DNA from: a virus
Reading direction: 5' to 3' (one strand)
DNA length: 64,000 bases
IMG/VR virus record: IMGVR_UViG_3300001097_000004
Coordinates: 10,664-74,663 of that record
Part shown: positions 14,501 to 29,813 of the stretch, piece by piece
Numbering within the stretch: the first letter of the stretch is position 1
Layout: every line of letters starts with the position of its first letter
The notes under the pieces: model-generated
What the model saw: only the letters and a program-made list of their open reading frames with translations
Databases searched by the model: none
Told to the model about the DNA's origin: nothing
Program-made: the position numbers and the translations under genes

Positions 14501-16214
14501 CAAGGTAGACAGGTTCAACATCAGAGGACTGAGGGGTGAGAGACCCGTCTGTGCCTTCCTCTGCGGGAGCGCTCTCAGAGTCAACAGCATCCATCGGAGC
14601 AGCCTGTACAGCATCCTCTACTTCATCACTTGCGGCGGTGATCGGCTGATACCAGAGCTTGTTGGATTGGTTTCCCTTTGAGTTCTTTCTCTTCAGCCAC
14701 TCGCTAATTAGGGAGTTGCTGTAGGCATCGGTAGTAAGCGTCTTACCTACAGTGTTCTCAAGCGCTCGTCCGGATGCCCCCTTATCGAGACTATCCTTCT
14801 TGAGGACTCCTCGGGCTCCTGGAGACGCTGCAGGCTTGAAACTCTCTCGCTGGGCCTTAACCCACGCGGGGAAGTTGTTGATAACACCGTGCAAGTCTTT
14901 GGCAGTCATCTGAGGGAGAGTGCCCGGAATCTGGGCCACGTCTCTGTTGACTGGGGTGCGCGGCTCTGCAAGAATTCCGCTGAAGTCTACGCGAGGAATA
15001 TCTTCGGTCTCGCCTGGAATCTGGGCCACAAATTGAGGTGATACTCCCGTAATCTGGTTCCCCAGAATAGTCTGAACACCGCCGCTGTCCATACGGACAT
15101 CAATAGTTCCGTTCTGGTTTACGCGGTCGATCTTACCGGCCTGGGATGGGTCATCGTTGACGATGACTCGCCCACCCTGCTTGGCAAACAGGCCCTTAGA
15201 GTCTCGCACCTGTTTGGAGGCATTAGCGGAGCGCTCGTCCTCAGTGTAGACCCCATCTCCAGGTGTCCCGGCTGTAGCGACCACAGAGTCAACGAGTTCC
15301 CAGTCCTCAGACTGGATAGCTCCGCGAACAAGGCGAGACTCCCCTAGGTCTAGGTCGTCGGCCCATACGGGATCAAACGGATTAACGACAAGCAGCTCTG
15401 CGATTTGAATAGCAGACTCAGCATCTACGACGAGGTGACTGTAGCCGGAAGTGCTGGAGGCCGGGCCGTCTAGGGCGTTGTCGATGCTCCAAATGGTGGG
15501 GGTCTGCAGATTGAGGGAAGTCCAGAGAGTGTCATCCCAGACGTAAGTACTGTGGTCAATATCGATCTTGTAGAGGCGGTCGATTGCGCCATCCTCTAGG
15601 TCAAGACGGATAATGAATTCGGGTGAGGCCTCAGGATTCTCCTCTAGAATCTCACTGACCTCCTGCCAATCCGGGGCGTGCTGGACAATGCTGGCGGGCT
15701 CGCGGTCCACGATTGTGGTGGCCCAGCGGCGTGCTGCATCTCCACCGTATAGGCGCTGTGCAACCTCACCACTTGTAGGGGAGCCATCGGCGGTTAGTCC
15801 CACCTTGTCGTCAGCGTGACGTTTGAAGAAGTCTACAATGTTGCTTAGATGTGCAAAGTCAATCTGGGCCTCAGTAGCCAGAGTTCTCGCAGTCAGGAGT
15901 GCAACGGAAGAGCCACCAACGGGGCGAGCCGCGAAGCTCTCTAGACCTAGTCGTGCAGCGTTGCGAACCCCACGAGGAATTGTATACATACGAGGGGTCG
16001 CCTGGGGCTCAGCGAATGCGAATGCGGACAGACCTGCCTCAGCAGAAACCTCGTCCGTTTGAGTAAACTCACCAGCTTCCCAGGTACGTGACGCTTCTAG
16101 CGTTGATGATGTGCCCGAGGCCACTACTACGGATACTCGGGAATCTACGACCACACCGCTATCGCCTTCTGTAAACAAAAGATGATAGCCAGATCGTCCA
16201 ATGAAACTAGCCAT
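11571..16214 (-). CDS. Capsid maturation protease, large multi-domain fusion
   Basis: EG..SGDGR, GH.GSVVVG.I, AVTIVAKPAFQEA, TPLTVTDDGKVFGHIAAW, SGDWR..LEL motifs; upstream of the capsid gene. Confidence 0.85.
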   Translation of the reverse strand: MASFIGRSGYHLLFTEGDSGVVVDSRVSVVVASGTSSTLEASRTWEAGEFTQTDEVSAEAGLSAFAFAEPQATPRMYTIPRGVRNAARLGLESFAARPVGGSSVALLTARTLATEAQIDFAHLSNIVDFFKRHADDKVGLTADGSPTSGEVAQRLYGGDAARRWATTIVDREPASIVQHAPDWQEVSEILEENPEASPEFIIRLDLEDGAIDRLYKIDIDHSTYVWDDTLWTSLNLQTPTIWSIDNALDGPASSTSGYSHLVVDAESAIQIAELLVVNPFDPVWADDLDLGESRLVRGAIQSEDWELVDSVVATAGTPGDGVYTEDERSANASKQVRDSKGLFAKQGGRVIVNDDPSQAGKIDRVNQNGTIDVRMDSGGVQTILGNQITGVSPQFVAQIPGETEDIPRVDFSGILAEPRTPVNRDVAQIPGTLPQMTAKDLHGVINNFPAWVKAQRESFKPAASPGARGVLKKDSLDKGASGRALENTVGKTLTTDAYSNSLISEWLKRKNSKGNQSNKLWYQPITAASDEVEDAVQAAPMDAVDSESAPAEEGTDGSLTPQSSDVEPVYLAVVAPDDPRAVLKLISLVPATASSTQPVAYKRDSGKWVQDEQVMNTLTSATPPPVIPLTDDALNDVLVQVDSAQEQSKTKTKESQYLGESPAPGFEGDTDSEPAEEVEAPEEPVAASAYDHGLMVLWGPRKDIMDAAVTADGGLDRNRGGAEKLRHYWTKGPGALKIVWGTPGDWTRCVANLSKYMGPRAKGYCSLRHHEVTGMWTGDKKHREMFSALSGETEFSDDLILDYEEALTASVDRTRGEMARLRMRGLTASGEPKYNIYDTSTPKGLTAAASVIPSLNPLGAAFFIPLALPEGISSGDGRLVDKYAATIRNLPISLLWQIKTDDGHKGSVVVGLIERLGRTPLGIGGGYGHFDVGVYGAEAERMVRNGMLRFVSADMDNFEADEEPEEAAAEEEDVKSIRQRKMTISQSRVMAVTIVAKPAFQEATIQLVPEAVLQEDNMIPDGIYVDGNDPREEEALVACAFIANAIPITPPQEWFTNPSLSAPTPLTVTDDGKVFGHIAAWDSNHIGREFKTNPPHSPSNYAYFHSGVVRTEEGEDVPVGQLTLAGGHAGMSASAREAARHYDDTASSVADIHAGEDAYGIWVAGAVRPGTSPEQIRALRASAPSGDWRPIRGKLELVAVCQVNVPGFPIARTLVASGQIMSLVAAGAMSLAKLKEDPLDELSARLEKLEQFSNKELSLQASAARERMTGARAARDAELSARTEAVLDRMSEFGYVSAKSRREAAAEGQELPNASFRSSANGTDTNSVNELRERIARTTEFASTTKEIEERKIRELLEARGQSAPEDPEDTPDAEENREKYTPKNQPRDDQGQFRLVLARIKDNLGTSSNQSVIDKLKETEGYEGVGDYAGSVKSGLDLIETLNRLDTGALNSDALANVRSATTDLGKVLANLPLPFGEEAEKVRFSDLPPVLRDLIDDFIVRVTKKIGAEDAEPAVAELEAFKTGADLFSQSEISSQMNKLLRLLT

Positions 16215-16226
16215 TAAGTTGTTACT

Positions 16227-16841
16227 CTATTCGTCGGAATTGTTGTCTGACTCGGAGTCTTCCGTGTCAGGCTCAGCGGACTCGTACTGCTCTGCATCTG
16301 ATACTGTGACAAAATTCTTGTCGTACTGCTCGATAAAGGCTTGGGCCTTCTCGGGGTCGATAAAGATTGCTTCCATGTCTTGGTGAGTCTCATCAGTTGG
16401 GGAGAGGCCAACCCAGTCTCCATCGGTACGGACATAACGTCCGGAGTCGTTGGCGTAGACAAGTCCTACGATGTAAGCTGAGTCTCCCAGCGCGTAAGCC
16501 ACAAGGCTCTCGGGGTGATTAATTTTGTCTCCTTCTTTTGCAAGGCTTCGTAGGGCTTCTACTGGCAAGTCAGTTTTGAATGACGACAACCAGAGTCCGT
16601 CAGGCTCCCGAAAAAGGCGAACCCTGTAGGTGGTGTCTGCGGACTTAAACTCTAGTCTAGCAGTTTTTTGGTCTACTGTTATATCATGAGCCTTAAATGA
16701 CTCGTCTGGGCCGGTCACCGCACTGACGGTCACCGAGGTCTTCCCGACGAGCGTCACCTTCAAGGTTACTACAGGTTGGGCCCCTTCGGAGGTTAAGACC
16801 CCTAGTCCTGTGAACAGGGGGTACGTGTTAGCTTTTACCAT
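16227..16841 (-). CDS. Hypothetical head-region protein
   Basis: 204-aa ORF overlapping the end of the giant ORF, co-oriented. Confidence 0.75.
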   Translation of the reverse strand: MVKANTYPLFTGLGVLTSEGAQPVVTLKVTLVGKTSVTVSAVTGPDESFKAHDITVDQKTARLEFKSADTTYRVRLFREPDGLWLSSFKTDLPVEALRSLAKEGDKINHPESLVAYALGDSAYIVGLVYANDSGRYVRTDGDWVGLSPTDETHQDMEAIFIDPEKAQAFIEQYDKNFVTVSDAEQYESAEPDTEDSESDNNSDE

Positions 16842-19800
16842 AGTCCTGGCTCCTCGTCATCATCTTCTAGCAACTCGTTCGAGTCAATGACCTGTGGCCC
16901 CTTGTTTACAGAGTTGATAAGACCGTTTAGTCTGAACATAATAGTACCATACCAAGCGGTCTGATCCATGTCCACAAAGTCTGGGAACACTGCCTGCAGC
17001 TTGCCTTTGACCATCAGTAGCTCGGCAGAGGTCATGTTGCCCCTGCCTGCACGAAGGTCGGCTAAGAGCCGGTCCGTGTACGGCGACTGCCAGACATTTT
17101 TCTGGAATTCCGGCTCAAGAGATAGAAGTCCGTGATCGATAGGTACGTGCTTGCCTTCGGGGGTGATCATCATGTTTCCAAGGTTCTGGTCGCGGTCTGG
17201 GTTTCCAATGAGGAAGTCCAATAGACCAATCTTTGGCATGTTCTCATGTCCGGGTTCCCAGAAGCTCTTATCGATATCCTTGTACCACAAACTAATGCTG
17301 GCACCCTCGTCAGCATCGCGGTTGCCGGTCCGGGGGACACTGTAGTGCTGGGCTGCAGCCTTTCCGGGGATTGTTGTGCTAGCAACAGTCACACCATCGG
17401 GAAGCATAGACATGGTCACATCGTCAATGCCTACGGCACGCATGACACGGTTGGCGGCAAGTTCTGCCTGCCCCATACCAACCTTGCTGGCACCTCTGGC
17501 ACGCTTGACGAACAGCTTCTGGCCGTCCGCAGTCTTCACGAAGGCCCCAAGTTCGTGGAGTGCACCCTGCTCAGGCGCGGGACCATCGGGGGTGCTGCCT
17601 TCAAGAAGACTGGCGATCTGAGCAGCAGATTCGGATTTGATGTTCTCGTAGAAGTGTGGCTCATCAGCCACCAGGGTAGGCGAGTCATCGCCACCTCGGT
17701 GCCTACGACGAGCATTAGCCTCAACCTGTGCACGACTTGGGGTCGCTGCAAAGTAGGTCTCATTGGCCTTGGAAGGCACAATGACATTGAACTGCTGATC
17801 CTTGTCCGGAGAGTAGTCGAAGATTTCTCCTGTGTTCCGGAGAACCCCGTCAACAGAGATTGGAGCACCGTAGGGGTCTTCTGCGTCCAAGAGACGTACC
17901 CTTATGGTTCCATCATCCTTGCGGCCTAGAGTTTGGAGGTATCCAAGCCCACGCAGAGGAATGATATCCCCGACTTCCATGTCACGGACGAGCTTGTATC
18001 GACGTTCGAACTGGTCGGTACTACGACCGATCTTTTCAAGCTTGTTGACCTCAGCAATGTCCGGGAAAGATACAGCTTCCCCACCATAATCCACACCGCT
18101 ACGTAGGTCTGCAAGGTCCTGCTCGGAGCGACCCTCCACTAGGTTCAATGTTTCAGTAGAGATACCGAACTGAGCGAAGAGGGCAGCTAGCGGAGACTCA
18201 TTCTCTCTAGTCTGTGCCTCCTCTTCGATGTCAGAGATTGTCCTGATCATATCTTCAACGTCGGCCTGGGTGGCATCCAGATCACCCAACACACCTTGAG
18301 CCATGTCAAAGTCTGCACGAGTGAGACGCTTGTCGTCTAGTAGACGACGCAGAGTATCAATCTGGGCGTTAGTGGCCGGAGCCGCCGGGTCAATAACATC
18401 ATCGAACTCGGAGAGGTCCATGTCCTCGAATGCTGTGAGGGTTTCTGGTCCAAGGTCGCGCTCTTTGATTGTCTGGGAGCCATCCTCTCCGGCGCTGGCG
18501 GTCGTGACCTGAGTGCGGTCGTTGTCCTTACGCTGGATTCGGATTACAGTCTCGTACTGAACGTTGTTGCCTTTGTCTAGCGTGGTGATGTGGTCCCCGG
18601 GAGCTAGCTCAGAAGCTCTTGCAGACTTCGGCTCAGCGTTCTCAACACGAATGGCAGCATCACGGCTATCGGACGGAACGTTGGCCCCTTCAAATCCTTC
18701 GATTTCAGTCTTGCCCGTTGCAGGATTCAACTCAGCCTTAGCCTTCGTAGGTGCGGCCTTCTTCGGACGAGCAACAGTCTTGTCGCCAGTCTCCGGAACA
18801 CCGAATCCGTTAGCCTCCATGAGATCATGGTCGATCACACGGGTGGGCGGGAAGAACGGCTCAGACTCAGGAGCGTCCGGTCCACTGACCTTCTGCAGAC
18901 CGGAGCCTACGTGAGGAATCGAGCGTGACTCAGGGTTTCTAAGTCCGTTCTCGGTGTTCTTCTCGATGAAGGTGGAAAGCGTGGTGTCACCATAACCATA
19001 TCCGGCAGGGTTCAGAGCCTCATAGAGCAAGTGGTCAACCTGGCCACGATATACGCGTCCGTAGTTCGGGTTAGGCTCGGTCACAACTTTAGGCTTGCCT
19101 GTAGTCACGTTATAGACAAGGTTTCCGTCTTCATCCCGTAGAGGAATGTTGTTTCCATCTGCATCCTTAACCGGGCGAGTCTTGCTGTTGTCAGTCCAAT
19201 CAACCCAGTCTCCGGCGTGCAACTTTGTACCGTCGAAAGAGATGTGAGAAGGCTTATCGGCCTTACCGGGGTTGAGCTTGTAGTTAGCTTCTGCCTTCTG
19301 TCGGCGCTTAACTGCAGAGAAAACCTTCGCAATCATCTTGGGGTCGAGGCTGCTCTTGGCACCGATAGCCTTGAGAGCCTTGAGATTTGTTACCTCAGGG
19401 TTGTCCATGAGCATCTGAACAATGGCTCCGATAGCCTGTGAGTCAGCCTCGTGAACGGACTTCGGAAGGTCTGTCCCAGAAATCAGCTCATCAGCGGCGC
19501 TGTCCGGAAGGACCCCATCCGTGCCTAGATAGTCCTTCTTGACGTAACGCTGCTTCTTGAAGAACGCTTCGGGGTCTCCGATGCCGGACATGCCCTTCTT
19601 GATGTAGTTCAAGGACTTGAATACTGCCTTGGGGGAGTGCTGACCATTCTCACGCAGACGTGTAGCGGTCACCTCTCCAGTCTTGAGGTCCGTGGCAGTT
19701 ATGTAGGTGAAGAACTGATTGCTGCTGGTACGACGAATGGTCGTATCGTAGCGCTTTTCACCGAATTCACGGGACTGAACAATCATATCACCATTATCCT

Positions 19801-22800
19801 TACGGATGAAGTTCGGGTGAGCGAACTCCAGCTGATCAGAAACTGAGTCAGCATTGGTGTAGTTGTTCGGGTTGTCGTCCGCAGCCATAAGCCCGGGGTC
19901 GGTAGGCGTGAAATTCTCAGCCAAGTCCTCTGAAGGTCGAGGTGTGGTCTTGATGTCGGCACGGTCAGGTGCGCTGGAGACCTCCTGCATGATCTCTGCA
20001 GACTCAGCGGGGGTCACACCCTCGTTGATGCGATCCTTGATCTCCTGCTTGCGCTCTGGAGTAATATCCTTGGCCTCAATAAGAGTCTCAACGACCTTTT
20101 CACGGTTCCCAGAAGCTACATGCTCCTCGGATGTGAATGTAGGGGCCTCTGGTGCCTCGTCAGGTGCAGGAATAGTATCATCGGGGTCAGCGTCGCCTCC
20201 GGAGTCCAGAGTCTCGTACTTCTCGTAAATCTTGTCGAGCTGCTTCTGGAGAATCTTCTTACGAATCGGATTGGTCTCGTTCGACTTCTCGATCTCAAGA
20301 CGACCGGCTAGGTCCTCTAGCTCGTCCGTGGTGTCCGGCATTCCGTCACCGACAGGCTCATCCTCAAGGGCAGCATCGGGCTCCGGAGTCTCGTCCGGTG
20401 TCGGCTCAGGCTCTGGAGTATCACGAACGGCTCGGGCAGCATCGCGCTCACGGCGGTCCTTCTCCATACGCAAATCATCTTCGCGCTCAAGATCGGTGAT
20501 GGAACGATCCTCTTCAGGTGTGTCGGTGCGTAGATCAATTTCTGCGTCGATTTCCTCGACCGACATATCCCTCGGCTTGGTCTCTACAGGCTGATCGGCC
20601 TTGATTTGCTCACGGCGTTCAAGTTCCTTACGAACATCCGCCATTTCCTTGGGGGAAGAGTTGCCGTTGTTTAGGACATCGTTGGCGTGGTTATCGAGGT
20701 CACCGTCAGACATGGTCTCTAGCGGAACTTCAACTTCAGAGTCTCCTGGAGCGACAACTTCTGCCGCAGCAGGGGCCTCAGGAGCTTCGGGAGCCTCTTC
20801 AGCTTCTGGAAGTGTGGCTGTGTCGTAGTTTTCGGTGCCAGGAATACCTCGTGAAGGGGTGTCTGGGTTCTCGTCAGACTCGTCGGTATAGTCGAAAGCC
20901 CATGCAAGGGAGCCTGGATCAAGGGCTTCCTGAGCGCGGGTAACGGCCACGTAGGCTAGACGCATCTCTTCGGGCTCTGGCCACGTCATTTCAGACTCCC
21001 CGGTCCTCTCGTTGACCTCTTCCTGAGGCCCACGGAAGTCCGCAGCGATCTTGACTCGGTTCCACTCAAGACCCTTAGCCTTGTGCGCGGTGGAGACTAC
21101 AACATCAATCGGAGCTTCATCGCTGTTCTGCATCGCAGTGATGCCATCAGCCATGCTGTCTGGTCTGCCGGTCTTGTCCCACGACTTGCTGTCACGGTTC
21201 CACTTGAACCCCATGGCTCGGAACTTGTCCCCAATCGGGAACGTGTTTCCGGACACCTTGAAGGTTACGTCTCCGCCACCAGCATCCTCAACATCATACA
21301 TGGCGGGCTTCATGCCACCGAACTTGTTGGGCACGTCTACGAGCACACCGCGTGCGCCCGGAGTCCACTTGACGGCCTCTCCAGCACCGAAGCCAGCACC
21401 ATCGGTCTCTCGGATGCTACCTACGGCCTGTTTGATCTGGTCCATACCCATCGTGTTCACGATGTTGTACAGCATGGACACCTTTGCGGAGGCCTTGCCA
21501 TTGGCTACGTCATCAGCAACTTCGTCCCATGTGGTGTAGCCCTGGAGGTCTTCGTGGTTGACTCTACCGTTGCCGTAGCGCAGTGTGTTCACGCTTTGGA
21601 CAAGGTTCTGCATGTCCTGCTTGAACTTCTTGGAAGTACCGACAACGCGGCCCTTCTCTAGCTCTTCGAGGATTGAGGTCAGTGCCCCAGCATTAGAGCG
21701 TGTGAGAATTGCATCCGGGTCGTTCATGGAGCCGGGCTCCATAACTTCACCCTTCTTACCTCCACCAATAACCTTCAGTGGGGAGTTGAGGAGCGAGAGG
21801 AACCGGTTCCCGAACCCAGCAATCTCGGGGCCGAAGCGCCAGGACTGTGTGAGGGGAAGATCGATATCAACCTCTACGTTGTCCATCTCGTTGATGGCAC
21901 CGCGGAAGGAGTAGATGGATTGTCGAGCGTCACCAACGTAGACCTTCTGGATGGTCTGATCACGGACGATCTTGGCCATAACCGGGTTGATGTCCTGGGC
22001 CTCATCGAAGAAGATTACGTCAGCCTTACCTGGTCCCTTGCCCGGAACGGACTGGGAGAGGTCTGGCTTGCTGAGAGCCCAAATCTTGAAGTTGTGGTTG
22101 AAGGTGTATTTGATCTTGCCAGTCGGGCTGTTTAGGTCGGCCCAATACTCTTCGGCCCACGCCTGTGTCTGCTCGTTGTGTGGGATGTCGAGACCCTCAA
22201 AGTGCTGAGGACCGATCTTGTCGTCAGCGCTAATGGAGAACTTGTCAATGGCCTCGCCTAGGGCGCGTGCAATCTCCGTGTCCTCGTGCTCTTCGCCGTC
22301 AAGCTTGGTGTTCTTGATATCGAGGTGCTGTGCAACCTTCTTAGGCAGCACTAGGGACTCTCGGTCACTGAGCTTCTTGGTGAGCTTCTTGTCTACACCA
22401 GCATACGCCAGTGAGTCGCCGGTACGTGAGTGCACGTTCTTCGGCATACGACCATCGGCCTCAAGCTGAGTAGTCTTGTTGAAGGCCACGTAAAGGATGT
22501 CCTTGTCCGGATCATTCTTCTGCAGCTGGCGAGCCATTAGCTCAAGTGTGGAGGTCTTACCGGTTCCGGCCAGAGCCTGCACAATGGCAGACATTCCGGA
22601 CATGACGGCGCGGATAATGTTGCGCTGTTCCTTGGTCGGCATGAACTTCTCGTCAGCGTAGTCCTCATCGGAGTCCTGGTAGGGAATTTCCGTCTGGGCT
22701 GCATCTCGGAGCTTCTGGCCTTCCTGGCTCTGCTGAAGAATCTCTTCGCTACGGGTCAACCCGCTACGCTCAGATGAAGCAATGTAATCATCCAGCGGGG

Positions 22801-25800
22801 TGTCCTCCGGAATATCAATGCTGTCTGCAGTACCAGAAGAGGACGGGATGCGATCTACATCTAGACGGTCGTCCGTGTCTCCACTAGGCTCGGCAATTTC
22901 ATAGATGGCAGAAGAGTTTGTAGGCTCGCCGTCGTTGTTGAGGTTGAGGGGCTTGTTGGTGTCCTGCAGTCCTGGGAAGTCCTGTCGGGACTTGCGCTCT
23001 GCAAGCGAGCCCTCAGAGTTGGGTCCAGCATCTACCTCATCTAGAGTAATGCTTTCGCCATTGACTACATCGAAGATAGCGTCTTGGTTTCGTTCCTTGC
23101 CGATACGGACAGCATCATCTCGGTCATCAACCTTCTCGGACACGTCCAGAGCGTACTCGTTGCCGTCTTCGGTCTTCCATACGCCAAGGTTGTTGCCGGG
23201 CTTGTCCAGCTCTTCACGGTTCTCGTCCACGTAGTTATTGACAGTGTCTAGGCCCTTCTCAGGGTTGTCGATATCATCCAGAGGGACACGGAACTCGTGA
23301 TCCTCAAGGGAAACAATGAACCCATCCTCGGGTCGTTCGCCAGTGTTGACATCAACAGTGATGCCACCATCCGTACGGATGTCGTCTAGCGTGGCCTCAT
23401 CGACCATGAATACACCCACACGACGTGCGTCAGGAACGTCAGTCTCGGTGCCAATAAGGTCAGCGCCCCATAGACTCTCGTCTACAGGTCCAGCCTTCTG
23501 ATCAGCGAACGGACGGTCGGGGATTGGCAGACTGCCGTTGTCTCCGAAGTAATTAGTCCAAGTGTTCTGACCACGAGTCTCAAGCCACAGGGCCTGCCAA
23601 GAATCTTTGGGCAAAGTGCGACGGTGGGTTCTCCATGCCTCCCATTCGCCCTTGGGGCCGAAGCCTACAGTGGCTCCACGCTCCTTGGACTTGACGTGAC
23701 CGAAGTAGTCGTGAACGGCACGGAAGAGGTCATTGACAACAAAGTCCTTGCGATCAATCGTGACGACATTCTTCATTGGGTGGCCCACAGGTAGAGTGGC
23801 TCCACCGTCTGCGAACACCTTCAACGTACCGTTGTTTTCCACGTCAGCAAGCATCTCTGCAGAGCTACCATACGGGTCGTCCTGGCCGAACTGAATTTCA
23901 ACTCCGTCAGCCTTCATCTCAAGGTACTGTGCAGCAATCGCATCGGTAAGCTTGAAGTAGGACTCGCGCACTTCGGGGGTTAGGTCCATATCTGGCAGGG
24001 CATCATAGGCCTCTGCCGCAGTGGGTCCCGAGGCATCCCAGGGGGTGACCTCTGGTTCGTCGGGGGCAGCGTCCATATCAGCGAGACGCTTCTCTTCAAT
24101 ACGTAGGTCAGCGTCGAGGTCATCAGCATACTCGCCGTTAGCAGTCTTGAGACGTTCCTTAAGGTCTGCAATACGTGACTCAACCTTGGCACGTTCGGGG
24201 CTTGAGGCCTCAGGAGCGTCCGGCTCCGGCAGAGTATCATCAACTACGGGGCGGTCGGGAAGAGTGTTGATGGCCTTGAGGGTCTTCTCCATCTCGGCCC
24301 AGCGGTCCTTCTGGTCCTGGCTGCGGAGGTCTACCTGCCAGCTGTCGTTGAAGTCCTCTAGACGTGCGGCCCAGGAGGCATCCTTTTGAAGTTCATCCAG
24401 AACCTCCTGCTTGGAGGCCCCATTCTCGATCATCTCAGCGATGTGGCCGTCAGAGTCGAAGTCCTTGATGAGGTCGGCGGCGAGGTCCGGCTTGGGCGCA
24501 GCGAGCCGCTCCTTCTCAGCGGCTCGTTCGGCCTTGACGGTGTCCGTATAGTCAACGTGCTCCTGGACTGAGTTCCACGAGTACGCGGTACCACCAGGCA
24601 TCTGGCCGTCCTTGTGCTTGATAACAAAGCGCGGAGAGAGCTGACCGTTTCCCCCCTTGATGGAGAGAAGTGTGGCTTCGATGTTACCGTCTGGAGAAGT
24701 CCAAACTTCACTGCCGTTAGCGTCAGTGCTCTTGGTCCAACCCTCTAGAGGGGTATTACCAAAGCGGTCAAGGTTGGTGTCTTCAGGAATGTCCAGCTCT
24801 GCGGGGTCGGCGGGGGTGTCCGCTTCTGGCGCAGGGGTAGTACGTGCATCACTGTCGGATACAATCAACTTCCCACGATTGACAACTATGTAATAGTTGG
24901 AGCCATCATCCTGCTTGGCGACAATCGCGTCATACCCCAACTCGGAGGCCAAAGCACCAATACCCTGCCCCATCTGAGCAGACATGGCACGGTCTATCTG
25001 AATGTCTCTAGACTTCCAGTTTACCTCGGGTCGTTCATCCAGTGGGATACTTTCAAACGCCCGGAAAGTCTCCATACGAGCGAGCGCTAAAGTTCTAAGC
25101 TCGTCCATGTCAATGATTTTTGCATCCCTAGGGAGTGCGGCAGCTACGGCATAATCATTACCGTCCATATCGGAGTAGTCACTAACAACCCCTTCATAGT
25201 TATCTCCAAAGTAGATTCCGAGACCGAAATCTCCAGGCTTGAATGGGGCAATCTCGGAGGTTCGTAGAGCGTCTGCACGCCCCTCGGGAGTGTCAGGAGT
25301 TCCCGTCTCGCCGTCCTCGTCGTCATCATCGGATGACCCGTTCCAGCTCAGCCCCTCCATGCGATAGATCGGTGTGGCACCGGCATCAACGGCATCTTTT
25401 AGCTCTTCGGCAGTAACAACCTGGGGCAGACCGCTACCATTCTCTGCGACAACAAAGTCAGAACTGAGGTTAAGACCGTACTGGTAGTTATACTTCCCGA
25501 ACATGTCTGGACCGAGATCAGTAGGAGACTCCTCACTAGTGTATGGAGAAGACTCTTTTGACGTGCCGTCAGGCGCGTCTAGTGCATCGAGCTTGGCCTG
25601 CGTGTCCGCAATGTCCTGCTCGATCTGATCTAGCTGCTCGGGCTTGGCGTTGTCTAGTCTTTTGTTATTCCGAGCGAGGGTACGTTCGAGGGCTCTTCGG
25701 TCGGAGTCGTCTCCGCTGTCGGCTGGGGCTGCTGTGGGCTTGTCTCCTCCGGAGTCTCCACTATCCCCTCCTCGGGAGTCGGGCTCGGCTGGGCTCCCTG

Positions 25801-27508
25801 TGTCAGCTTCTGGCTGATCTGGGTCGTCCACTGCCTTAGCTGTTCCGGGGTCATCTGTCCCAGATTTTCCGGAATCGGAATCACTGTCTTTGGCATCGGG
25901 TGCCTCCTTCTTTTCGGTTTCCTTAGGATCGCCAGCCAGCTCCTTCTTGAGGTCGTCAACAGACTTCTCCAGGTCAGCAAGACGCTTGTCCTCTTTGGCT
26001 TTGTCGTTCTTCTGCTGCTCCTTGAGACCGGCTCGGGCCGTGTCGGCTTCTTCCATGTCTCCGGAGTCGGCGTTCTCACCCTTGTCGTCTAGGTTCTTCT
26101 GGGCTCTTGTGTCAGCGTCAATGATCTGCTCACGCGCTAGAGCGTCAGCCTCTTCACGCGCCTTCTCGTAGGCATCCCAACCGGCACGCTCTTCTTCGGT
26201 CATGTCGTCTACGGGCTCGATCTTCTTCGAGGGTGCGTCCGTCTCCGGAGCCTCCCCCTCAGGCGCATCAGCCTCGGCTTCAGGAGCCTCATCTAGGGCT
26301 GCAATCTTCTCTTCAGTCTCAACGATCTGCTTCTCAAGACGTTCGAACTGCTTGCCATCTGCATTGGCTTGCTGATCGTTCAGCTTGGCTAGGCGGGTCT
26401 CCAGAGCTTCGCGCTCTTCAGGCTTGACCTGACTGGCAGGCTCGCCAGCCACACGTCCCTTGTCGTTGGGGATGGTCTCTCCGGTGGAGAGGTCGTGGAA
26501 CTCGGGGGCACCGATGCCACCAGCCTGGGCCTTAGCGTTGTCTAGGGTGTCAGCGGAGGTGTAAATCTCAACAGAACCGGAATCCGAGTCTACAACGAGG
26601 CGCTTTCCGGAGCCCTCCTTGAGGTAGTCACTATTCGCTTCAACGAACTGGGCCAGACCTTCAGGAGAGGTGTCCTGGCCGGACTTGCCGGTAGGAATAA
26701 GGAAGCCCTCACGTGCAACACCGAAGGTGTCAAGGTCGAGTTCACCCTCACCAAGGTCACTCTCGGACTGCGCGTCAGCAATGTCCTGAGGCTGAACGTC
26801 AGCGCCCTCGGGCAGACGTTCCTTGGTATCAAGAGTGTCCTCCTCAGGACCGAAAGAGTCTAGCTCGTTGACCTGCTTGAGCGCGAAGCCCACGCCACGC
26901 CAGTTCTTGACGGTGCCCGGGTTGTTGTTGACATTTTCAACGCCCCATGTCTCTGTCGGGGAGCCGTCCACTTCGGTGGTGCTGTGGTAGAGGTTATAGT
27001 CGTTGTCCTCTGTGGACCACATCTCCGCACCGCCCCTAGCGGGCTTGTGGTTCCAGCCGATGGGTGAGTCTGAGAACGGAATCTTGTCAACGTCAGGAAT
27101 CTTTTCGGAGAGACGTTCCTTGACGAGGGTGCCGTTAGCGTCTAGACCGAGCTTGATACCCCGGTCGGAGAGTTGCTTGGCGGAAAGCTGGCCAACGAAC
27201 TCCTGCACGTTGGAACTCTTTACATCATAGAACCCGGTCCTAAGTCCGGAAGGGTCCTCGGAGACGTAGACCTGAGCGGTCTGCGGATCACGAGCACCTA
27301 CGAATGATCCGAGCACGGAACGAACGGTTCCATCACTGAAGCGAACCTTGAACTTGAGCAACCCACGACCCATGAAAATGAATCGTCCGTAACGGTCACG
27401 CAGCTGGAGCTTGGCTCGTGCTGAACGTGCGGCCTTGCTATTTCCACCAGCGGCAACAAGTGCGGCCAGTTCCTCATCAAAGTCAGGAAACTCAGGAAAA
27501 TCGAGCAC
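16835..27508 (-). CDS. Giant polyvalent protein (ART-like, HDxxGH, SF1 helicase and HipA/PI3K-like kinase domains)
   Basis: 3557 aa. Helicase motifs: ALAGTGKTST, FDEAQD, VGDARQSIYSFRGA, LTQSWRFG, STAHKAKGLEW, RLAYVAVTRA. Kinase motifs: LFVK, AELAA, DFLIGNPDR..GN, IDHG. ART-like motifs: YR.EG, GLGIYF, GYDAI. Confidence 0.85.
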   Translation of the reverse strand: MLDFPEFPDFDEELAALVAAGGNSKAARSARAKLQLRDRYGRFIFMGRGLLKFKVRFSDGTVRSVLGSFVGARDPQTAQVYVSEDPSGLRTGFYDVKSSNVQEFVGQLSAKQLSDRGIKLGLDANGTLVKERLSEKIPDVDKIPFSDSPIGWNHKPARGGAEMWSTEDNDYNLYHSTTEVDGSPTETWGVENVNNNPGTVKNWRGVGFALKQVNELDSFGPEEDTLDTKERLPEGADVQPQDIADAQSESDLGEGELDLDTFGVAREGFLIPTGKSGQDTSPEGLAQFVEANSDYLKEGSGKRLVVDSDSGSVEIYTSADTLDNAKAQAGGIGAPEFHDLSTGETIPNDKGRVAGEPASQVKPEEREALETRLAKLNDQQANADGKQFERLEKQIVETEEKIAALDEAPEAEADAPEGEAPETDAPSKKIEPVDDMTEEERAGWDAYEKAREEADALAREQIIDADTRAQKNLDDKGENADSGDMEEADTARAGLKEQQKNDKAKEDKRLADLEKSVDDLKKELAGDPKETEKKEAPDAKDSDSDSGKSGTDDPGTAKAVDDPDQPEADTGSPAEPDSRGGDSGDSGGDKPTAAPADSGDDSDRRALERTLARNNKRLDNAKPEQLDQIEQDIADTQAKLDALDAPDGTSKESSPYTSEESPTDLGPDMFGKYNYQYGLNLSSDFVVAENGSGLPQVVTAEELKDAVDAGATPIYRMEGLSWNGSSDDDDEDGETGTPDTPEGRADALRTSEIAPFKPGDFGLGIYFGDNYEGVVSDYSDMDGNDYAVAAALPRDAKIIDMDELRTLALARMETFRAFESIPLDERPEVNWKSRDIQIDRAMSAQMGQGIGALASELGYDAIVAKQDDGSNYYIVVNRGKLIVSDSDARTTPAPEADTPADPAELDIPEDTNLDRFGNTPLEGWTKSTDANGSEVWTSPDGNIEATLLSIKGGNGQLSPRFVIKHKDGQMPGGTAYSWNSVQEHVDYTDTVKAERAAEKERLAAPKPDLAADLIKDFDSDGHIAEMIENGASKQEVLDELQKDASWAARLEDFNDSWQVDLRSQDQKDRWAEMEKTLKAINTLPDRPVVDDTLPEPDAPEASSPERAKVESRIADLKERLKTANGEYADDLDADLRIEEKRLADMDAAPDEPEVTPWDASGPTAAEAYDALPDMDLTPEVRESYFKLTDAIAAQYLEMKADGVEIQFGQDDPYGSSAEMLADVENNGTLKVFADGGATLPVGHPMKNVVTIDRKDFVVNDLFRAVHDYFGHVKSKERGATVGFGPKGEWEAWRTHRRTLPKDSWQALWLETRGQNTWTNYFGDNGSLPIPDRPFADQKAGPVDESLWGADLIGTETDVPDARRVGVFMVDEATLDDIRTDGGITVDVNTGERPEDGFIVSLEDHEFRVPLDDIDNPEKGLDTVNNYVDENREELDKPGNNLGVWKTEDGNEYALDVSEKVDDRDDAVRIGKERNQDAIFDVVNGESITLDEVDAGPNSEGSLAERKSRQDFPGLQDTNKPLNLNNDGEPTNSSAIYEIAEPSGDTDDRLDVDRIPSSSGTADSIDIPEDTPLDDYIASSERSGLTRSEEILQQSQEGQKLRDAAQTEIPYQDSDEDYADEKFMPTKEQRNIIRAVMSGMSAIVQALAGTGKTSTLELMARQLQKNDPDKDILYVAFNKTTQLEADGRMPKNVHSRTGDSLAYAGVDKKLTKKLSDRESLVLPKKVAQHLDIKNTKLDGEEHEDTEIARALGEAIDKFSISADDKIGPQHFEGLDIPHNEQTQAWAEEYWADLNSPTGKIKYTFNHNFKIWALSKPDLSQSVPGKGPGKADVIFFDEAQDINPVMAKIVRDQTIQKVYVGDARQSIYSFRGAINEMDNVEVDIDLPLTQSWRFGPEIAGFGNRFLSLLNSPLKVIGGGKKGEVMEPGSMNDPDAILTRSNAGALTSILEELEKGRVVGTSKKFKQDMQNLVQSVNTLRYGNGRVNHEDLQGYTTWDEVADDVANGKASAKVSMLYNIVNTMGMDQIKQAVGSIRETDGAGFGAGEAVKWTPGARGVLVDVPNKFGGMKPAMYDVEDAGGGDVTFKVSGNTFPIGDKFRAMGFKWNRDSKSWDKTGRPDSMADGITAMQNSDEAPIDVVVSTAHKAKGLEWNRVKIAADFRGPQEEVNERTGESEMTWPEPEEMRLAYVAVTRAQEALDPGSLAWAFDYTDESDENPDTPSRGIPGTENYDTATLPEAEEAPEAPEAPAAAEVVAPGDSEVEVPLETMSDGDLDNHANDVLNNGNSSPKEMADVRKELERREQIKADQPVETKPRDMSVEEIDAEIDLRTDTPEEDRSITDLEREDDLRMEKDRRERDAARAVRDTPEPEPTPDETPEPDAALEDEPVGDGMPDTTDELEDLAGRLEIEKSNETNPIRKKILQKQLDKIYEKYETLDSGGDADPDDTIPAPDEAPEAPTFTSEEHVASGNREKVVETLIEAKDITPERKQEIKDRINEGVTPAESAEIMQEVSSAPDRADIKTTPRPSEDLAENFTPTDPGLMAADDNPNNYTNADSVSDQLEFAHPNFIRKDNGDMIVQSREFGEKRYDTTIRRTSSNQFFTYITATDLKTGEVTATRLRENGQHSPKAVFKSLNYIKKGMSGIGDPEAFFKKQRYVKKDYLGTDGVLPDSAADELISGTDLPKSVHEADSQAIGAIVQMLMDNPEVTNLKALKAIGAKSSLDPKMIAKVFSAVKRRQKAEANYKLNPGKADKPSHISFDGTKLHAGDWVDWTDNSKTRPVKDADGNNIPLRDEDGNLVYNVTTGKPKVVTEPNPNYGRVYRGQVDHLLYEALNPAGYGYGDTTLSTFIEKNTENGLRNPESRSIPHVGSGLQKVSGPDAPESEPFFPPTRVIDHDLMEANGFGVPETGDKTVARPKKAAPTKAKAELNPATGKTEIEGFEGANVPSDSRDAAIRVENAEPKSARASELAPGDHITTLDKGNNVQYETVIRIQRKDNDRTQVTTASAGEDGSQTIKERDLGPETLTAFEDMDLSEFDDVIDPAAPATNAQIDTLRRLLDDKRLTRADFDMAQGVLGDLDATQADVEDMIRTISDIEEEAQTRENESPLAALFAQFGISTETLNLVEGRSEQDLADLRSGVDYGGEAVSFPDIAEVNKLEKIGRSTDQFERRYKLVRDMEVGDIIPLRGLGYLQTLGRKDDGTIRVRLLDAEDPYGAPISVDGVLRNTGEIFDYSPDKDQQFNVIVPSKANETYFAATPSRAQVEANARRRHRGGDDSPTLVADEPHFYENIKSESAAQIASLLEGSTPDGPAPEQGALHELGAFVKTADGQKLFVKRARGASKVGMGQAELAANRVMRAVGIDDVTMSMLPDGVTVASTTIPGKAAAQHYSVPRTGNRDADEGASISLWYKDIDKSFWEPGHENMPKIGLLDFLIGNPDRDQNLGNMMITPEGKHVPIDHGLLSLEPEFQKNVWQSPYTDRLLADLRAGRGNMTSAELLMVKGKLQAVFPDFVDMDQTAWYGTIMFRLNGLINSVNKGPQVIDSNELLEDDDEEPGLW

Positions 27509-27574: not shown

Positions 27575-27790
27575 TCAACTTTCCAGCGGAGTGATCGACA
27601 GATACCCGTTAGACCACCCAGAAATCTTCAAGAGCAGAGCATCACCACGAACACCAGGCTTCTCAAACCCCTTCAGAGTGTTCGTTGCCGTAGATGTGGT
27701 GGTGCTGAATGTTTGGGTTTCGTGGTCGTAGACGATCTGACCAAGAATCTTGTTGAATCGGTCAGTCACGTTGAGGGTTGTAGTTTCCAT
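27575..27790 (-). CDS. Small hypothetical protein
   Basis: 71 aa between portal and giant gene; TAGGAT -10 box 6 nt before the ATG. Confidence 0.65.
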   Translation of the reverse strand: METTTLNVTDRFNKILGQIVYDHETQTFSTTTSTATNTLKGFEKPGVRGDALLLKISGWSNGYLSITPLES

Positions 27791-27808: not shown

Positions 27809-29497
27809 CTACTGCGGTTCCGCAAGGTCAATTGGGGGAGCATTAGCGCCCGGGGCGACATCAGGTCCGTCCGACACAGGCTCCGCACCCGGCTCAGCTC
27901 CAGGGTCAGCGGACCCGGCGTTCGGGTCTCCCGGAGAGCCGCCCTTGAGAATGTCGTTGACATCACCGGGGATCGGAGCCGCGTTGGTGGCCTGACTTGC
28001 GGCACGGGCGGCATCCATAAGCTCAGGGGAGATAACCTTCAACAGGCTCTCGGTCAGCTCAGGAGTGAATGTGGCGCGGTCCATGAGAAGACGCAAAGCC
28101 AGCTCCGTGGGGTCCGGAGCATCCGAATCCGAGAAGCCGTGCTGTCTACGCCATGTCTGGGCGGAGACGGCCATCTTCTCGTACCCCACGTTGGCATCTT
28201 CAGCGCGGTCGTTGCGGGTAGCAACAGAGGAGGGATCGTACCAGACAACGAGACGGTCAACCTCAGCCTGATCCCAGCCCTCAGCCATGAGGTAGGGACG
28301 CAAGTAGACAATGGTGATTGCGTCAGAGATCAGGAGAAGCATCGGCTCAATGTGGGCCTTGTAAAGTGCTTCGTCAATTTGTATTGCGTTGCTGTACTTC
28401 ACGTTGGCCAGGCCTGTAACAACATCCTTCGGAACGTCAAGTCCCTGGAGGATTCTCTCCAGCACGCGGTCAGAGCGGGCGATCATCGTCTGGTCGTACT
28501 CACGCGTGAATGTGATGTGACGGATTTCTTTTCCCAACTCTGTGGGGCCACGCACTAGGAGAGGCACAACCGCAGACGCGGAGTCCTCTTCAGAGATGGG
28601 TGTGGTCATAGCTTCGACCAGCTCGTTCTCGAACGAGTCCGCGATCTCTTCGGGCGTGGGTTCCTTGTCGGCATCCTCTCCATCCTCTAGATAGAGGTCT
28701 GGGTCGGGCATAGCGGCGTTGGAGAGGCCGTCCGGAACGAACAGCAGACCGGCGTTCAACCTAGAGCGTTCGACGGAGCGGAAGGATCGGTTAAGGAGTA
28801 GAAGTTCAGCGCAGAGGTCGAGGAGGCCCTTCAGGCTGGAGTCGGGGTCCTCAGAGAAGCGCGGGTGGGCACGCCACATACGACCCACGAACGCGGTGTC
28901 GGGGAGCATAATGCTGCCCTGCTTGGTTCCACTACCACCAACTAGATCAGATCGGGGTGCGAGGTAGTAGCTATTTTTTCCGGCCATCTGAAGCTCGTCA
29001 ACGGATCGGACATCCCATGACTCGCGGGTGCCGGTTCCAATACGCTCAGGAAGCTGAACTAGATAGCACTCGCCAGCAACACTGAGGTTGAGAGCTGCAT
29101 CGCGCAAGAGGCCCGCCTGTCCACCGTAGGCAGAGTCTAGACGGGTGACGGCACGAACGGCAGCGTCCGCGAGATCGGGGTCAAGAGTGTCGGAGTCTCT
29201 AACAGAAATAGGAACCTCTGCCGGATTTTCAATAACAGCCGGGTAGAGACGAATTCGGGAGACCACGGAGGCCACCAAGTTGAAGGCGTACTTGATCTCA
29301 CCGATAGAGTCGTAGTACTCCCAGGCCTCAGTCTGCCACTGCTTTGTATTGGAGCCTTGACGGCGCTTGAAGGCTGCGGCCTCGTTCTTGTCCTTAAGGT
29401 TGATTCGAGATGCAGCAGCAGTTAGGGGGCGCGGTGCGTTGTAGACCGTAGCCTCGGCTGAAGAGGCATCGGGGTCACGGAGGAACGGGGAAGCCAT
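27809..29497 (-). CDS. Portal protein
   Basis: WQTEAWEYYD.IGEIKYA, LNLSVAGECYL, W.AHPR..PDS, GLDVPK.VVTG, VWYD.S motifs. The start MASPF has an AAGGA RBS. Confidence 0.9.
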   Translation of the reverse strand: MASPFLRDPDASSAEATVYNAPRPLTAAASRINLKDKNEAAAFKRRQGSNTKQWQTEAWEYYDSIGEIKYAFNLVASVVSRIRLYPAVIENPAEVPISVRDSDTLDPDLADAAVRAVTRLDSAYGGQAGLLRDAALNLSVAGECYLVQLPERIGTGTRESWDVRSVDELQMAGKNSYYLAPRSDLVGGSGTKQGSIMLPDTAFVGRMWRAHPRFSEDPDSSLKGLLDLCAELLLLNRSFRSVERSRLNAGLLFVPDGLSNAAMPDPDLYLEDGEDADKEPTPEEIADSFENELVEAMTTPISEEDSASAVVPLLVRGPTELGKEIRHITFTREYDQTMIARSDRVLERILQGLDVPKDVVTGLANVKYSNAIQIDEALYKAHIEPMLLLISDAITIVYLRPYLMAEGWDQAEVDRLVVWYDPSSVATRNDRAEDANVGYEKMAVSAQTWRRQHGFSDSDAPDPTELALRLLMDRATFTPELTESLLKVISPELMDAARAASQATNAAPIPGDVNDILKGGSPGDPNAGSADPGAEPGAEPVSDGPDVAPGANAPPIDLAEPQ

Positions 29498-29507
29498 GTA
29501 TAGGTCC

Positions 29508-29813
29508 TTAGTTGCTGAGTTTTTGGTCGAGGATTCCGACCATAGTGGATAATGCAAGAAGTGTGCATCCGATAAGGGTGGGCACGGGTACCAGCAAGTA
29601 CAATACTAGCACAACTGCGGCGATCCAGAAGCCCAAACACCAGTAGCAGGTGAGCAGATAGCCTATGCGTGTGCTCTCCGGGGGGAATTTGTTCCAAAAA
29701 CGGGCTCTGAGACCGGAAAACAAGGTATCTTCTATGGCCAAACGACAGAGTCTGTAGATGGCCAGGGCCAGAATAATGAGGTAGACAGGGTTGAAATAGG
29801 GGGTAAAATCCAT
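29508..29813 (-). CDS. DUF1360-like membrane protein
   Basis: LA.YRL.RL..ED, YLLTCYWCLGFW; hydrophobic helices. Confidence 0.75.
   Translation of the reverse strand: MDFTPYFNPVYLIILALAIYRLCRLAIEDTLFSGLRARFWNKFPPESTRIGYLLTCYWCLGFWIAAVVLVLYLLVPVPTLIGCTLLALSTMVGILDQKLSN

Follow-up and report, generated by a model that had tools for sequence, protein, structure and literature searches.

What kind of protein is encoded by a 10.7-kb gene lodged between the portal and protease genes of a phage, and where would that protein act? The question is raised by a stretch of 64,000 nucleotides (the window: positions 10,664 to 74,663 of IMG/VR record IMGVR_UViG_3300001097_000004) from an uncultured relative of the large Microbacterium phages, in which the genes run on a single strand throughout in the order TerL, portal, giant, small gene, protease/scaffold, capsid, tail; all features described below lie on the minus strand, with coordinates given in the window. 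The giant ORF (P0001; 16835..27508) specifies 3557 residues, 390 kDa, with a pI of 4.45 and a net charge of -303. Its upstream neighbour in the same operon is the portal gene (27809..29557; phrog_776, E 9e-109), with a 71-aa ORF between the two. On the other side, a 204-aa ORF (16227..16841), whose start overlaps the giant's stop, precedes a 1547-aa protease/scaffold polyprotein (P0002, here p1547; 11571..16214) whose head maturation protease signature (phrog_18402, E 8e-62) spans residues 1044-1275; the counterpart in phage Cece, gp70, is annotated as a capsid maturation protease, and a PDB search with p1547 returned no match. The initial annotation had set the giant between portal and prohead protease: the order is right, but the protease is one domain of the polyprotein, and two small ORFs intervene. 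A scan turned up promoter- and terminator-like sites no more often than shuffled sequence did.

The frame is uninterrupted from 16835 to 27508, as first described, and begins with a GTG preceded by a Shine-Dalgarno sequence, AGAGGA, about 7 nt upstream. That the source record is a metagenomic contig lends some colour to the suspicion that several genes have been fused by misassembly or sequencing error. Chance, however, cannot produce an open frame of 10.7 kb; cultured phages (Pumpernickel, A3Wally and Cece) carry syntenic single genes of 1654-2235 codons; independent metagenomic proteins of 2838-5584 aa keep the order N-terminal module, ART, UvrD, kinase; and the identical 3557-aa protein is present on two contigs in the protein collection. 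The chance that the ORF is an artefact is negligible: it and its domains are real, and the catalytic motifs are intact, save for an atypical loop in the kinase. The composition profile bears out a chain in which globular islands alternate with linkers that are acidic and rich in Pro/Glu (28-30% D+E), and each of the five islands initially delimited lies within about 30 residues of its proposed position. Linker or coiled-coil-like segments make up about 40% of the chain; the linkers are long and acidic, and probably disordered.

A giant gene occupies the same slot in Pumpernickel, A3Wally and Cece, which are cultured Microbacterium phages, and in 28 IMG/VR loci. In all 28 of these the portal is about 60% identical, while the giants have only the N-terminal module in common. 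Across the family this module is retained and the kinase frequently so, whereas the intervening cargo differs, the relatives' giants carrying PI3_PI4_kinase, UvrD, RNase_T, ADPrib_exo_Tox, GNAT or ParB_N domains. The family is built as frame and cargo: the N-module is constant, the C-terminal kinase often so, and the middle is exchanged from one relative to another. Pumpernickel gp82, A3Wally gp85 and Cece gp68, each named 'hypothetical protein', share slot, N-module and a conserved core with the window's giant, and the Pumpernickel protein has the kinase as well; all three are without the ART, HDxxxH/GGITV and helicase domains, the window's protein being some 1300-1900 residues longer. A search of the literature on Pumpernickel, A3Wally and other relatives, virion proteomics included, found nothing relevant.

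Among the cargo domains, the helicase (aa 1609-2206; 20891..22684) matches phrog_1967 (E 6e-84) and, above the Pfam cut-offs, UvrD-helicase (46.3 bits, cut-off 23) and UvrD_C (39.4 bits, cut-off 25.6). Every SF1 motif is present and intact: I, ALAGTGKT, at 1645; II, DEAQD, at 1835; III, GDARQSIYSFRGA, at 1859; IV, SWRF, at 1889; and VI, TAHKAKGLE, at 2140. These data strongly support the prediction, already made at ~20900-22650, of a complete SF1/UvrD-type enzyme, here classed as SF1A UvrD/FBH1-like; the closest solved structure is that of FBH1 (PDB 9xzj, E 4e-25). A DUF5710-like motif (GFKWNRDSKSW) in the helicase insert was dropped, the Pfam search being empty up to E 5. Further along the chain lies the core shared with Pumpernickel gp82 and with the giants of loci L005, L007 and L009 (aa 2464-2992; 18533..20119), with motifs DWTDW, PNPNYGxVYRG and EPFF; it gave no Pfam match and, by profile, no PDB match, and its role is probably structural.

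The island for which an ART-like fold had been proposed at ~24860-25375 (aa 655-891; 24836..25546) appears to be a divergent ADP-ribosyltransferase-fold domain of ART-PolyVal type, and the proposal holds at the level of both fold and family. Its best ESM Atlas matches are ART-PolyVal clusters (score 0.93). In the giant itself PF18760 (ART-PolyVal; gathering cut-off 31.2 bits) finds no match; four homologues (P0129, P0123, P0122, P0125) score 18.9 to 29.3 bits over the same region, again below cut-off. The AF2 model (pLDDT 70) superimposes on diphtheria toxin with Z 6.8 and rmsd 3.2 Å over 125 residues, all 50 of the top VIA matches listed are ART-fold chains, and Foldseek matches include AcrIF11, ParT, RES toxins, exotoxin A and PARPs. 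Support for the ART fold, and for a place in the diphtheria toxin/PARP-like clade, is moderate because Z is below 8. The top Foldseek match, a chain of the cyanophage A4 pre-ejectosome (E 1.1e-3), was set aside: VIA gave an rmsd of 7.4 Å, and the paper describing it makes no mention of an ART. R716, Y766 (in GxGxYF), D860 (GYDA) and N877-R878 are invariant. In the ART-PolyVal family as described by Iyer, Burroughs, Anand, de Souza and Aravind (2017, J Bacteriol; PMC5512222) the active site is H-Y-D, with His on strand 1, Tyr on strand 2 and Asp on strand 5; here the strand-1 position is Arg716, not His, in 11 of 11 aligned sequences, giving a triad R-Y-D.

Two adjoining islands follow. The domain first recognised by its GEWEAW and ETRGQN motifs at ~23500-23960 is present as an HDxxxH (HDYFGH) domain (aa 1160-1350; 23459..24031; phrog_3170), a widespread phage module with 116 homologues, in which N1259, R1263, H1266, D1267, H1271, E1288, H1295, E1310 and N1319 are invariant, a pattern that looks enzyme-like. 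AF2 models it with pLDDT above 93 throughout, yet Foldseek against the PDB gave only E >1, and VIA against 48,161 chains a best Z of 3.9, so that no known fold can be named, which does not by itself prove the fold novel. In BFVD the domain occurs in proteins carrying ART-PolyVal, MuF, LPD or NAT domains, its fusion partners in other phages thus including the 'phage head morphogenesis' domain MuF; more speculatively, it could be a new hydrolase fold travelling with ART-PolyVal domains. The MATCAP/DUF1704-like gluzincins have an HExxxH zinc site and a downstream Glu ligand (PMC10499314); here the motif H1266-D-x-x-x-H1271 has Asp where the gluzincins have their catalytic Glu, and G-E1288-x-x-A comes after it. 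PF08014 matched 2 of 109 homologues at E 5e-4 and the VIA Z with MATCAP was 2.5; PF08014 found nothing in the source genome, and the HDxxxH profile retrieved no MATCAP entry from the PDB, its sole match there, a designed protein, being taken as spurious. A MATCAP-like zincin is accordingly a weak hypothesis. The GGITV domain, expected at ~23050-23370, is found at 23039..23458 (aa 1351-1490; phrog_17808), with a low-confidence AF2 model; it forms a dyad with HDxxxH in proteins of mycobacteriophage cluster C such as Rizal gp102.

The C-terminal island (aa 3290-3557; 16838..17641) is PI3/4-kinase- or CtkA-like, with K3335, E3349, D3438-R3439-(D3440), N3445 and D3458 at the catalytic positions, which in such kinases are held by the ATP-binding Lys, the helix-C Glu, the DRHxxN loop and the Mg-binding Asp. 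Pfam PI3_PI4_kinase scores 18.7 bits with the whole protein and 22.6 bits with the domain, both below the cut-off of 27.1, but it matches 8 of 15 relatives and many of a set of 39, and relatives carry precomputed PF00454 matches. A phmmer search with the window's copy failed to reach the family members, the family alignment being needed to make the link; in that alignment K3335, E3349, D3438, R3439, N3445 and D3458 are invariant, and its profile finds CtkA (E 0.0025) and PI4K2B (E 0.014) in the PDB. Helicobacter pylori CtkA, HipA and the type II PI4-kinases (PDB 3akj, 4wtv) share with the giant's kinase family a DRHxxN loop and a Mg-binding Asp; CtkA and PI4-kinase are its best profile matches, though weak ones (E 0.0025 to 0.015). 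Within the family the outlier is the window's copy: it reads DRDQNLGN, that is DRD and a two-residue insert, where 25 relatives have DR[HN]xGN, and given these changes it may be impaired. The HipA/PI3K-like kinase initially placed at ~17000-17540 is thus supported by its invariant residues and by consistent, if weak, PI3_PI4_kinase, CtkA and PI4K2 matches, and qualified by the sub-threshold Pfam score and the atypical loop. The adjacent 204-aa ORF was considered as a kinase-specific partner, a link that finds no support here: its homologues, kept in Pumpernickel (gp83) and in loci L007 and L009, adjoin kinase-less giants in the latter two, and in the kinase-bearing clade L012-L029 the same slot holds a gene of 316-335 aa, unrelated by phmmer.

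One chain thus houses an ART fold, an SF1 helicase and a kinase-like domain along with no fewer than two other conserved modules, a combination of at least two disparate activities, and the assignment to the polyvalent class made at the outset agrees with Iyer et al. (PMC5512222): like the proteins described there, the giant is a single, very large chain made up of many enzyme domains unrelated to one another, its gene adjoins the virion genes of a portal-terminase phage, and its ART belongs to the ART-PolyVal lineage; UvrD-type helicases are also recorded there in polyvalent proteins of actinomycetes. It differs in having no detected MuF, MPTase, methylase-SNF2 dyad, PBECR or LPD Pfam domain, and in its R-Y-D rather than H-Y-D triad. 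In the part of PMC5512222 available to us we did not find its frame, the 345-aa N-module with its tag and the PI3/4K-like kinase; the kinase described there is of a truncated Ser/Thr/Tyr-kinase type, from phages of Verrucomicrobia and Bacteroidetes. The giant is a new version of the proteins of Iyer et al., the general concept being already published; in that source packaging and injection are predicted, not shown.

Bearing on whether this version travels in the virion is the N-terminal module (aa 1-345; 26474..27508), which consists of block A (1-220), a variable insert and block B (256-345), and is the only part common to every relative: it is encoded at the 28 IMG/VR loci, recurs in 39 giants whose lengths run from 1956 to 5584 aa, and is 44-52% identical to those of Pumpernickel gp82, A3Wally gp85 and Cece gp68. 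It gave no Pfam match and no usable ESM Atlas match; a single-sequence query of IMG/VR recovered no close relatives, an alignment query did. Within it, a core of residues ~20-83 (27260..27451) contains an invariant motif, Q-x-R-D-R-x-G-x-[FW], at 27380-27400. By hhalign the alignment of this core matches that of p1547 residues ~320-395 with a probability of 87% (E 4e-6, 56 columns), and in every relative the RDxxGxF motif occurs once per giant and twice per p1547 (in the window at 15186-15206 and 12033-12053). The core is thus a candidate procapsid-docking element. Since the module has no known relatives, this role depends on the one 56-column profile-profile match. What were first invoked as 'N-terminal signals' prove to be a real conserved module, its core showing homology to part of the protease/scaffold protein.

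A second property of the chain is its lack of cysteine: 0 of 3557 residues, compared with 0.58% for the remaining ORFs of the window, and 16 of 120,475 residues in 44 relatives, a depletion of about 45-fold in the family. The tape measure and capsid proteins are likewise without cysteine, and the depletion groups the giant with these rather than with the non-structural ORFs of the window.

We infer that the giant would be packaged, injected and active before phage transcription; loading into the head and release into the next host, an idea already known, is probable. The circumstantial grounds are the tag shared with the protease/scaffold protein, the near-absence of cysteine and the HDxxxH-MuF fusions found elsewhere. 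In full, the reading that we favour, and hold to be reasonably likely, is of a late-expressed polyvalent protein of phage type, docked in the procapsid, injected with the DNA and acting in the new host. The N-module would dock it inside the procapsid, the RDxxGxF tag making the same contact as the protease/scaffold protein; it would remain in the mature head, its linkers possibly cut by the head protease, leave unfolded with the DNA through portal and tail, and refold in the new host. There the ART and kinase would modify host proteins before any phage gene is expressed, and the helicase would work, equally early, on DNA-bound host factors or the entering genome. Against it we count the sub-threshold kinase, the ART with Arg for the ART-PolyVal His and without a Pfam match of its own, the lack of any detected MuF domain, portal-binding domain or further recognised head-targeting element (Phage_Mu_F had no match up to E 5 in the N-module or elsewhere in the giant) and the lack of any identified protease cut site in it. 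A 390-kDa protein of such negative charge is, moreover, hard to accommodate next to packed DNA, and passage through a siphovirus tail demands unfolding.

One alternative is that the giant, made along with the head genes, forms an enzyme complex in the cytoplasm late in infection, is never packaged and serves in the same cycle, for instance on DNA that has been replicated but not yet packaged, in shutting off the host at a late stage or in countering abortive infection: helicase, ART and kinase could all work within the producing cell, the giant is very acidic, and neither a MuF nor a portal-binding domain was detected. Such a complex leaves unexplained the invariant N-module with a tag common to the protease/scaffold protein, the strict portal-protease slot held in ~30 genomes by giants of differing cargo, and the cysteine depletion; we think it unlikely. 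Another alternative is a mainly structural internal head protein, an inner-body, scaffold or DNA-organising component that sets head size or orders the 180-190 kb genome, its enzyme domains secondary or decayed. The large share of linker or coiled-coil-like chain and the non-enzymatic core retained by relatives without helicase and ART point that way, as do DarA and Hdf of P1, which are head-morphogenesis factors besides being defence proteins (PMC12810830). The catalytic motifs of helicase, kinase and ART are, however, intact, but for the window's kinase loop, and conserved family-wide, the middle is swapped between relatives, as is usual for effectors rather than scaffolds, and the operon already has a separate protease/scaffold polyprotein, making a structural role less probable still than a cytoplasmic one.

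The packaged reading admits a bolder extension, which we put forward tentatively as more doubtful than the reading itself: that the ~56-residue RDxxGxF element is a portable capsid-loading tag, such that in the present group of large actinobacterial siphoviruses any chain placed behind it, even one of over 5000 residues, enters the procapsid, and that the absence of cysteine is an adaptation for unfolded passage via portal and tail and refolding in the next host. If true, it would amount to a rule-based, programmable route of protein delivery in a tailed phage. Injected phage proteins set the first minutes of infection, ahead of the reading of phage genes, and very few have experimental proof, namely T4 Alt, the P1 Dar proteins and N4 vRNAP. 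To the polyvalent repertoire the giant would add a kinase resembling the PI3/4-kinases, an ART variant with an R-Y-D triad and the widespread HDxxxH module, with a confident model and no solved-structure relative. With Pumpernickel, A3Wally and Cece in culture as safe model phages of Microbacterium, the frame-and-cargo design and the candidate tag make the loading and arrival roles of the giant effectors directly testable.

In DarB of phage P1 an N6-adenine methyltransferase is joined to an SF2 helicase; the giant differs in that its helicase is of SF1/UvrD type and that no methyltransferase was matched in Pfam, NCBIfam or PHROGs. Homologues of DarA or Hdf were likewise not detected, and P1 is an enterobacterial myovirus, the giant's phage an actinobacterial siphovirus. 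The Dar proteins, including DarB of ~2000 aa or more, are nevertheless co-ejected with the DNA; DarB, helicase-containing like the giant, is packed into the head via other head-associated proteins and protects the co-ejected DNA (PMC12810830). Further precedents in the literature are T4 Alt, N4 vRNAP and the polyvalent proteins themselves (PMC5512222), and of these Alt, a late-made ART-fold enzyme that is carried in the head, injected and modifies host proteins, offers a working model for the giant's ART island. Alt consists of one R-S-E ART domain and has a short capsid-targeting sequence that is cleaved, whereas the giant's putative ART is of the diphtheria toxin/PARP-like ART-PolyVal lineage and is embedded in a chain of 3557 residues.

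The giant gene (16835-27508, on the minus strand, like its operon neighbours and the islands described here) is a single uninterrupted frame of 3557 codons, with a GTG start codon and AGAGGA ahead of it; the source is an IMG/VR viral contig of 74.7 kb, 42% complete by the CheckV estimate. The protein, of 390 kDa, has a pI of 4.45 and a net charge of -303, and a simple composition profile resolves it into ordered islands separated by linkers in which Asp+Glu make up 28-30% and Pro up to 11%. The five domain islands named in the initial annotation are confirmed: all lie within about 30 residues of the boundaries set here.

From high to low coordinates along the minus strand, the genes of the operon include the large terminase (31441-34056), the portal (27809-29557; phrog_776), a 71-aa ORF (27575-27790) whose position corresponds to that of Pumpernickel gp81 (71 aa) and Cece gp67, and the giant gene. 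The next ORF, of 204 aa, has its start overlapping the stop of the giant; it is followed by a 1547-aa protein that has a coiled-coil tail and, at aa 1044-1275, the signature of a head-maturation protease (phrog_18402). After this protein come the major capsid protein (682 aa; 9365-11413), the major tail protein, the adaptor and the tape measure protein (1237 aa; 724-4437). Promoter-like and terminator-like sites are no commoner in the window than in shuffled sequence. The terminase (Terminase_6N at aa 54-148, Terminase_6C at aa 681-827) is interrupted by an intein of the LAGLIDADG/Hom_end homing-endonuclease type (LAGLIDADG at aa 414-489); in cultured relatives it is annotated as several separate genes.

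The nearest cultured relatives are the Microbacterium siphoviruses Pumpernickel, A3Wally, Big4, Zooman and Cece, with genomes of 186-195 kb, all of which carry in the giant-gene slot a gene annotated "hypothetical protein" (gp82 of Pumpernickel, 2235 aa; gp85 of A3Wally, 1913 aa; gp68 of Cece, 1654 aa). With the N-terminus alignment as query, 28 IMG/VR loci were recovered, and every one has a portal about 60% identical to that of the window, then an ORF of 1100 to >3700 aa with the conserved N-terminal module (N-module, aa 1-345 of the giant), then a homologue of the 1547-aa protein. A search of a 5.8-billion-protein collection turned up the N-module in 39 proteins of 1956-5584 aa. Only the first ~150-345 residues are common to all relatives; the C-terminal kinase is present in 25 of 44. 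Because the N-module is universal while the other Pfam domains of the 39 proteins vary (PI3_PI4_kinase, UvrD, RNase_T, ADPrib_exo_Tox, GNAT), the family consists of a constant frame with polymorphic cargo, which is the logic of delivered effectors. One locus (L011:9959-20381) has two tandem giant ORFs (1104 and >2269 aa), both with the N-module and an RDRYGRW motif. In a more distant clade (loci L012-L031) the N-module begins ~180 residues into the giant ORF, the gap from portal to giant ORF is ~2 kb, and the protease/scaffold protein is separated from the giant by a gene of 316-335 aa, unrelated by phmmer to the 204-aa ORF of the window.

The cargo includes a UvrD-type helicase (aa 1609-2206), which exceeds the Pfam cut-offs for UvrD-helicase and UvrD_C, matches phrog_1967 (E 6e-84), has human FBH1 as closest solved structure (E 4e-25) and keeps motifs I, II, III, IV and VI intact. 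The C-terminal kinase-like domain (aa 3290-3557) scores 18.7 to 22.6 bits against Pfam PI3_PI4_kinase, below the cut-off; 8 of 15 IMG/VR relatives match the same family, as do many of the 39 giant database relatives. A 12-sequence alignment shows invariant K3335 (the ATP-binding Lys), E3349, D3438 and R3439 (catalytic loop), N3445 and D3458 (the Mg-binding Asp), and the kinase-family profile finds its best solved matches in H. pylori CtkA (E 0.0025) and type II PI4-kinases. The catalytic loop of the window's copy, DRDQNLGN, is a family outlier against the DR[HN]xGN of 25 relatives.

The ART-like island (aa 655-891) has no Pfam match itself; it falls among ART-PolyVal clusters in the ESM Atlas (score 0.93), and a full HMMER search against 1.8 billion representatives brought up 11 relatives, among them giants of 5015 and 2838 aa; several of the 11 match ART-PolyVal in the aligned region just under the cut-off. 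Arg716, Tyr766 (GxGxYF), Asp860 (GYDA) and Asn-Arg877/878 are invariant. The ART-PolyVal active site is described as H-Y-D (PMC5512222), of which the island, by its aligned residues, has an R-Y-D variant. Its AlphaFold model (pLDDT 70) has only ART-fold chains among the matches listed: diphtheria toxin (Z 6.8, rmsd 3.2 Å over 125 residues), then exotoxin A, cholix toxin, ParT, RES toxins, MbcT, PARPs and the anti-CRISPR entry 6kyf. The top Foldseek match of the model is PDB 9k3a chain B residues 1269-1605, a cyanophage A4 pre-ejectosome ejection protein (E 1.1e-3), which superposes poorly (VIA Z 5.3, rmsd 7.4 Å); the paper on that structure makes no mention of an ART fold.

The HDYFGH (HDxxxH) island (aa 1160-1350; 23459-24031) has 116 homologues, many of them stand-alone proteins of ~200 aa, in which N, R, H, D, H, E, H, E and N residues are invariant; its AlphaFold model (pLDDT >93) finds no match among solved structures in the PDB. 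Predicted viral structures place the module in large phage proteins together with ART-PolyVal, MuF ("phage head morphogenesis"), LPD or acetyltransferase domains, and also in small solo podovirus proteins. The module, which repeatedly accompanies ART-PolyVal, is a candidate for a new enzyme fold. The HDxxxH...GExxA pattern recalls, on thin support, HExxxH gluzincins such as MATCAP (PMC10499314). The adjoining GGITV island (aa 1351-1490) is its dyad partner, the two also occurring together in mycobacteriophage cluster C proteins. The HDxxxH module is widespread in phages and bacteria, ~200-aa solo examples being those of podoviruses LKA1, AS12 and Percy.

As Iyer et al. 2017 (PMC5512222) use the term, the giant is a phage-type polyvalent protein, one more member of that kind with its own cargo set. 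It differs from the proteins described in the parts of the survey consulted in its own frame of N-module plus tag, in a kinase of another type and in the R-Y-D form of its ART, and it has none of the MuF, MPTase and methylase-SNF2 elements that typify them; nor is its domain content DarB-like.

Whether the giant is packaged was judged from several features. Within the window the RDxxGxF motif occurs once in the giant (aa 37-43), twice in the 1547-aa protein and otherwise only in one short 73-aa plus-strand ORF, and this one-plus-two pattern is kept in every relative. Around it, the giant and the 1547-aa protein share a homologous stretch of ~56 residues (profile-profile probability 87%, E 4e-6); since the protease/scaffold protein must enter the procapsid, the shared element is reasonably read as a putative docking tag. 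Cysteine is absent from the 3557 residues of the giant, compared with 0.58% for the remaining ORFs of the window, and 44 relatives total 16 cysteines in 120,475 residues; the tape measure and major capsid proteins also have none. Such avoidance fits a virion protein that must unfold and refold; alternatively, part of it may stem from cysteine being scarce in acidic, disordered chains. Cysteine reaches 1-5% in non-structural ORFs of the window. Also bearing on packaging, other phages have the HDxxxH module fused to head domains of the MuF type; counted against packaging are the giant's huge size and strong acidity, the lack of a detected known head-targeting domain, and the absence of virion data for relatives in the literature.

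The earlier interpretation, of a packaged and injected effector, is supported in part. The analysis establishes gene structure, domains and family design; for the steps from docking to action in the new cell, we infer a course modelled on T4 Alt, the P1 Dar proteins and N4 vRNAP (PMC5512222, PMC12810830). The giant would be made late, together with the head genes, and dock in the procapsid via the tag; the head protease may cut it within the linkers, and it would leave unfolded, ejected with the DNA. Once in the new cell, it would modify host proteins through its ART and kinase and act on DNA-protein complexes through its helicase.

By eye only, a small beta-rich pattern, P-x-G-W ... D-G ... 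W, closes block A of the N-module (26849-27060) and seems to recur at aa ~920-1000 (24254-24835), and several SH3-like-looking stretches can be picked out at aa 2760-2830, 2960-3020 and 3150-3230.
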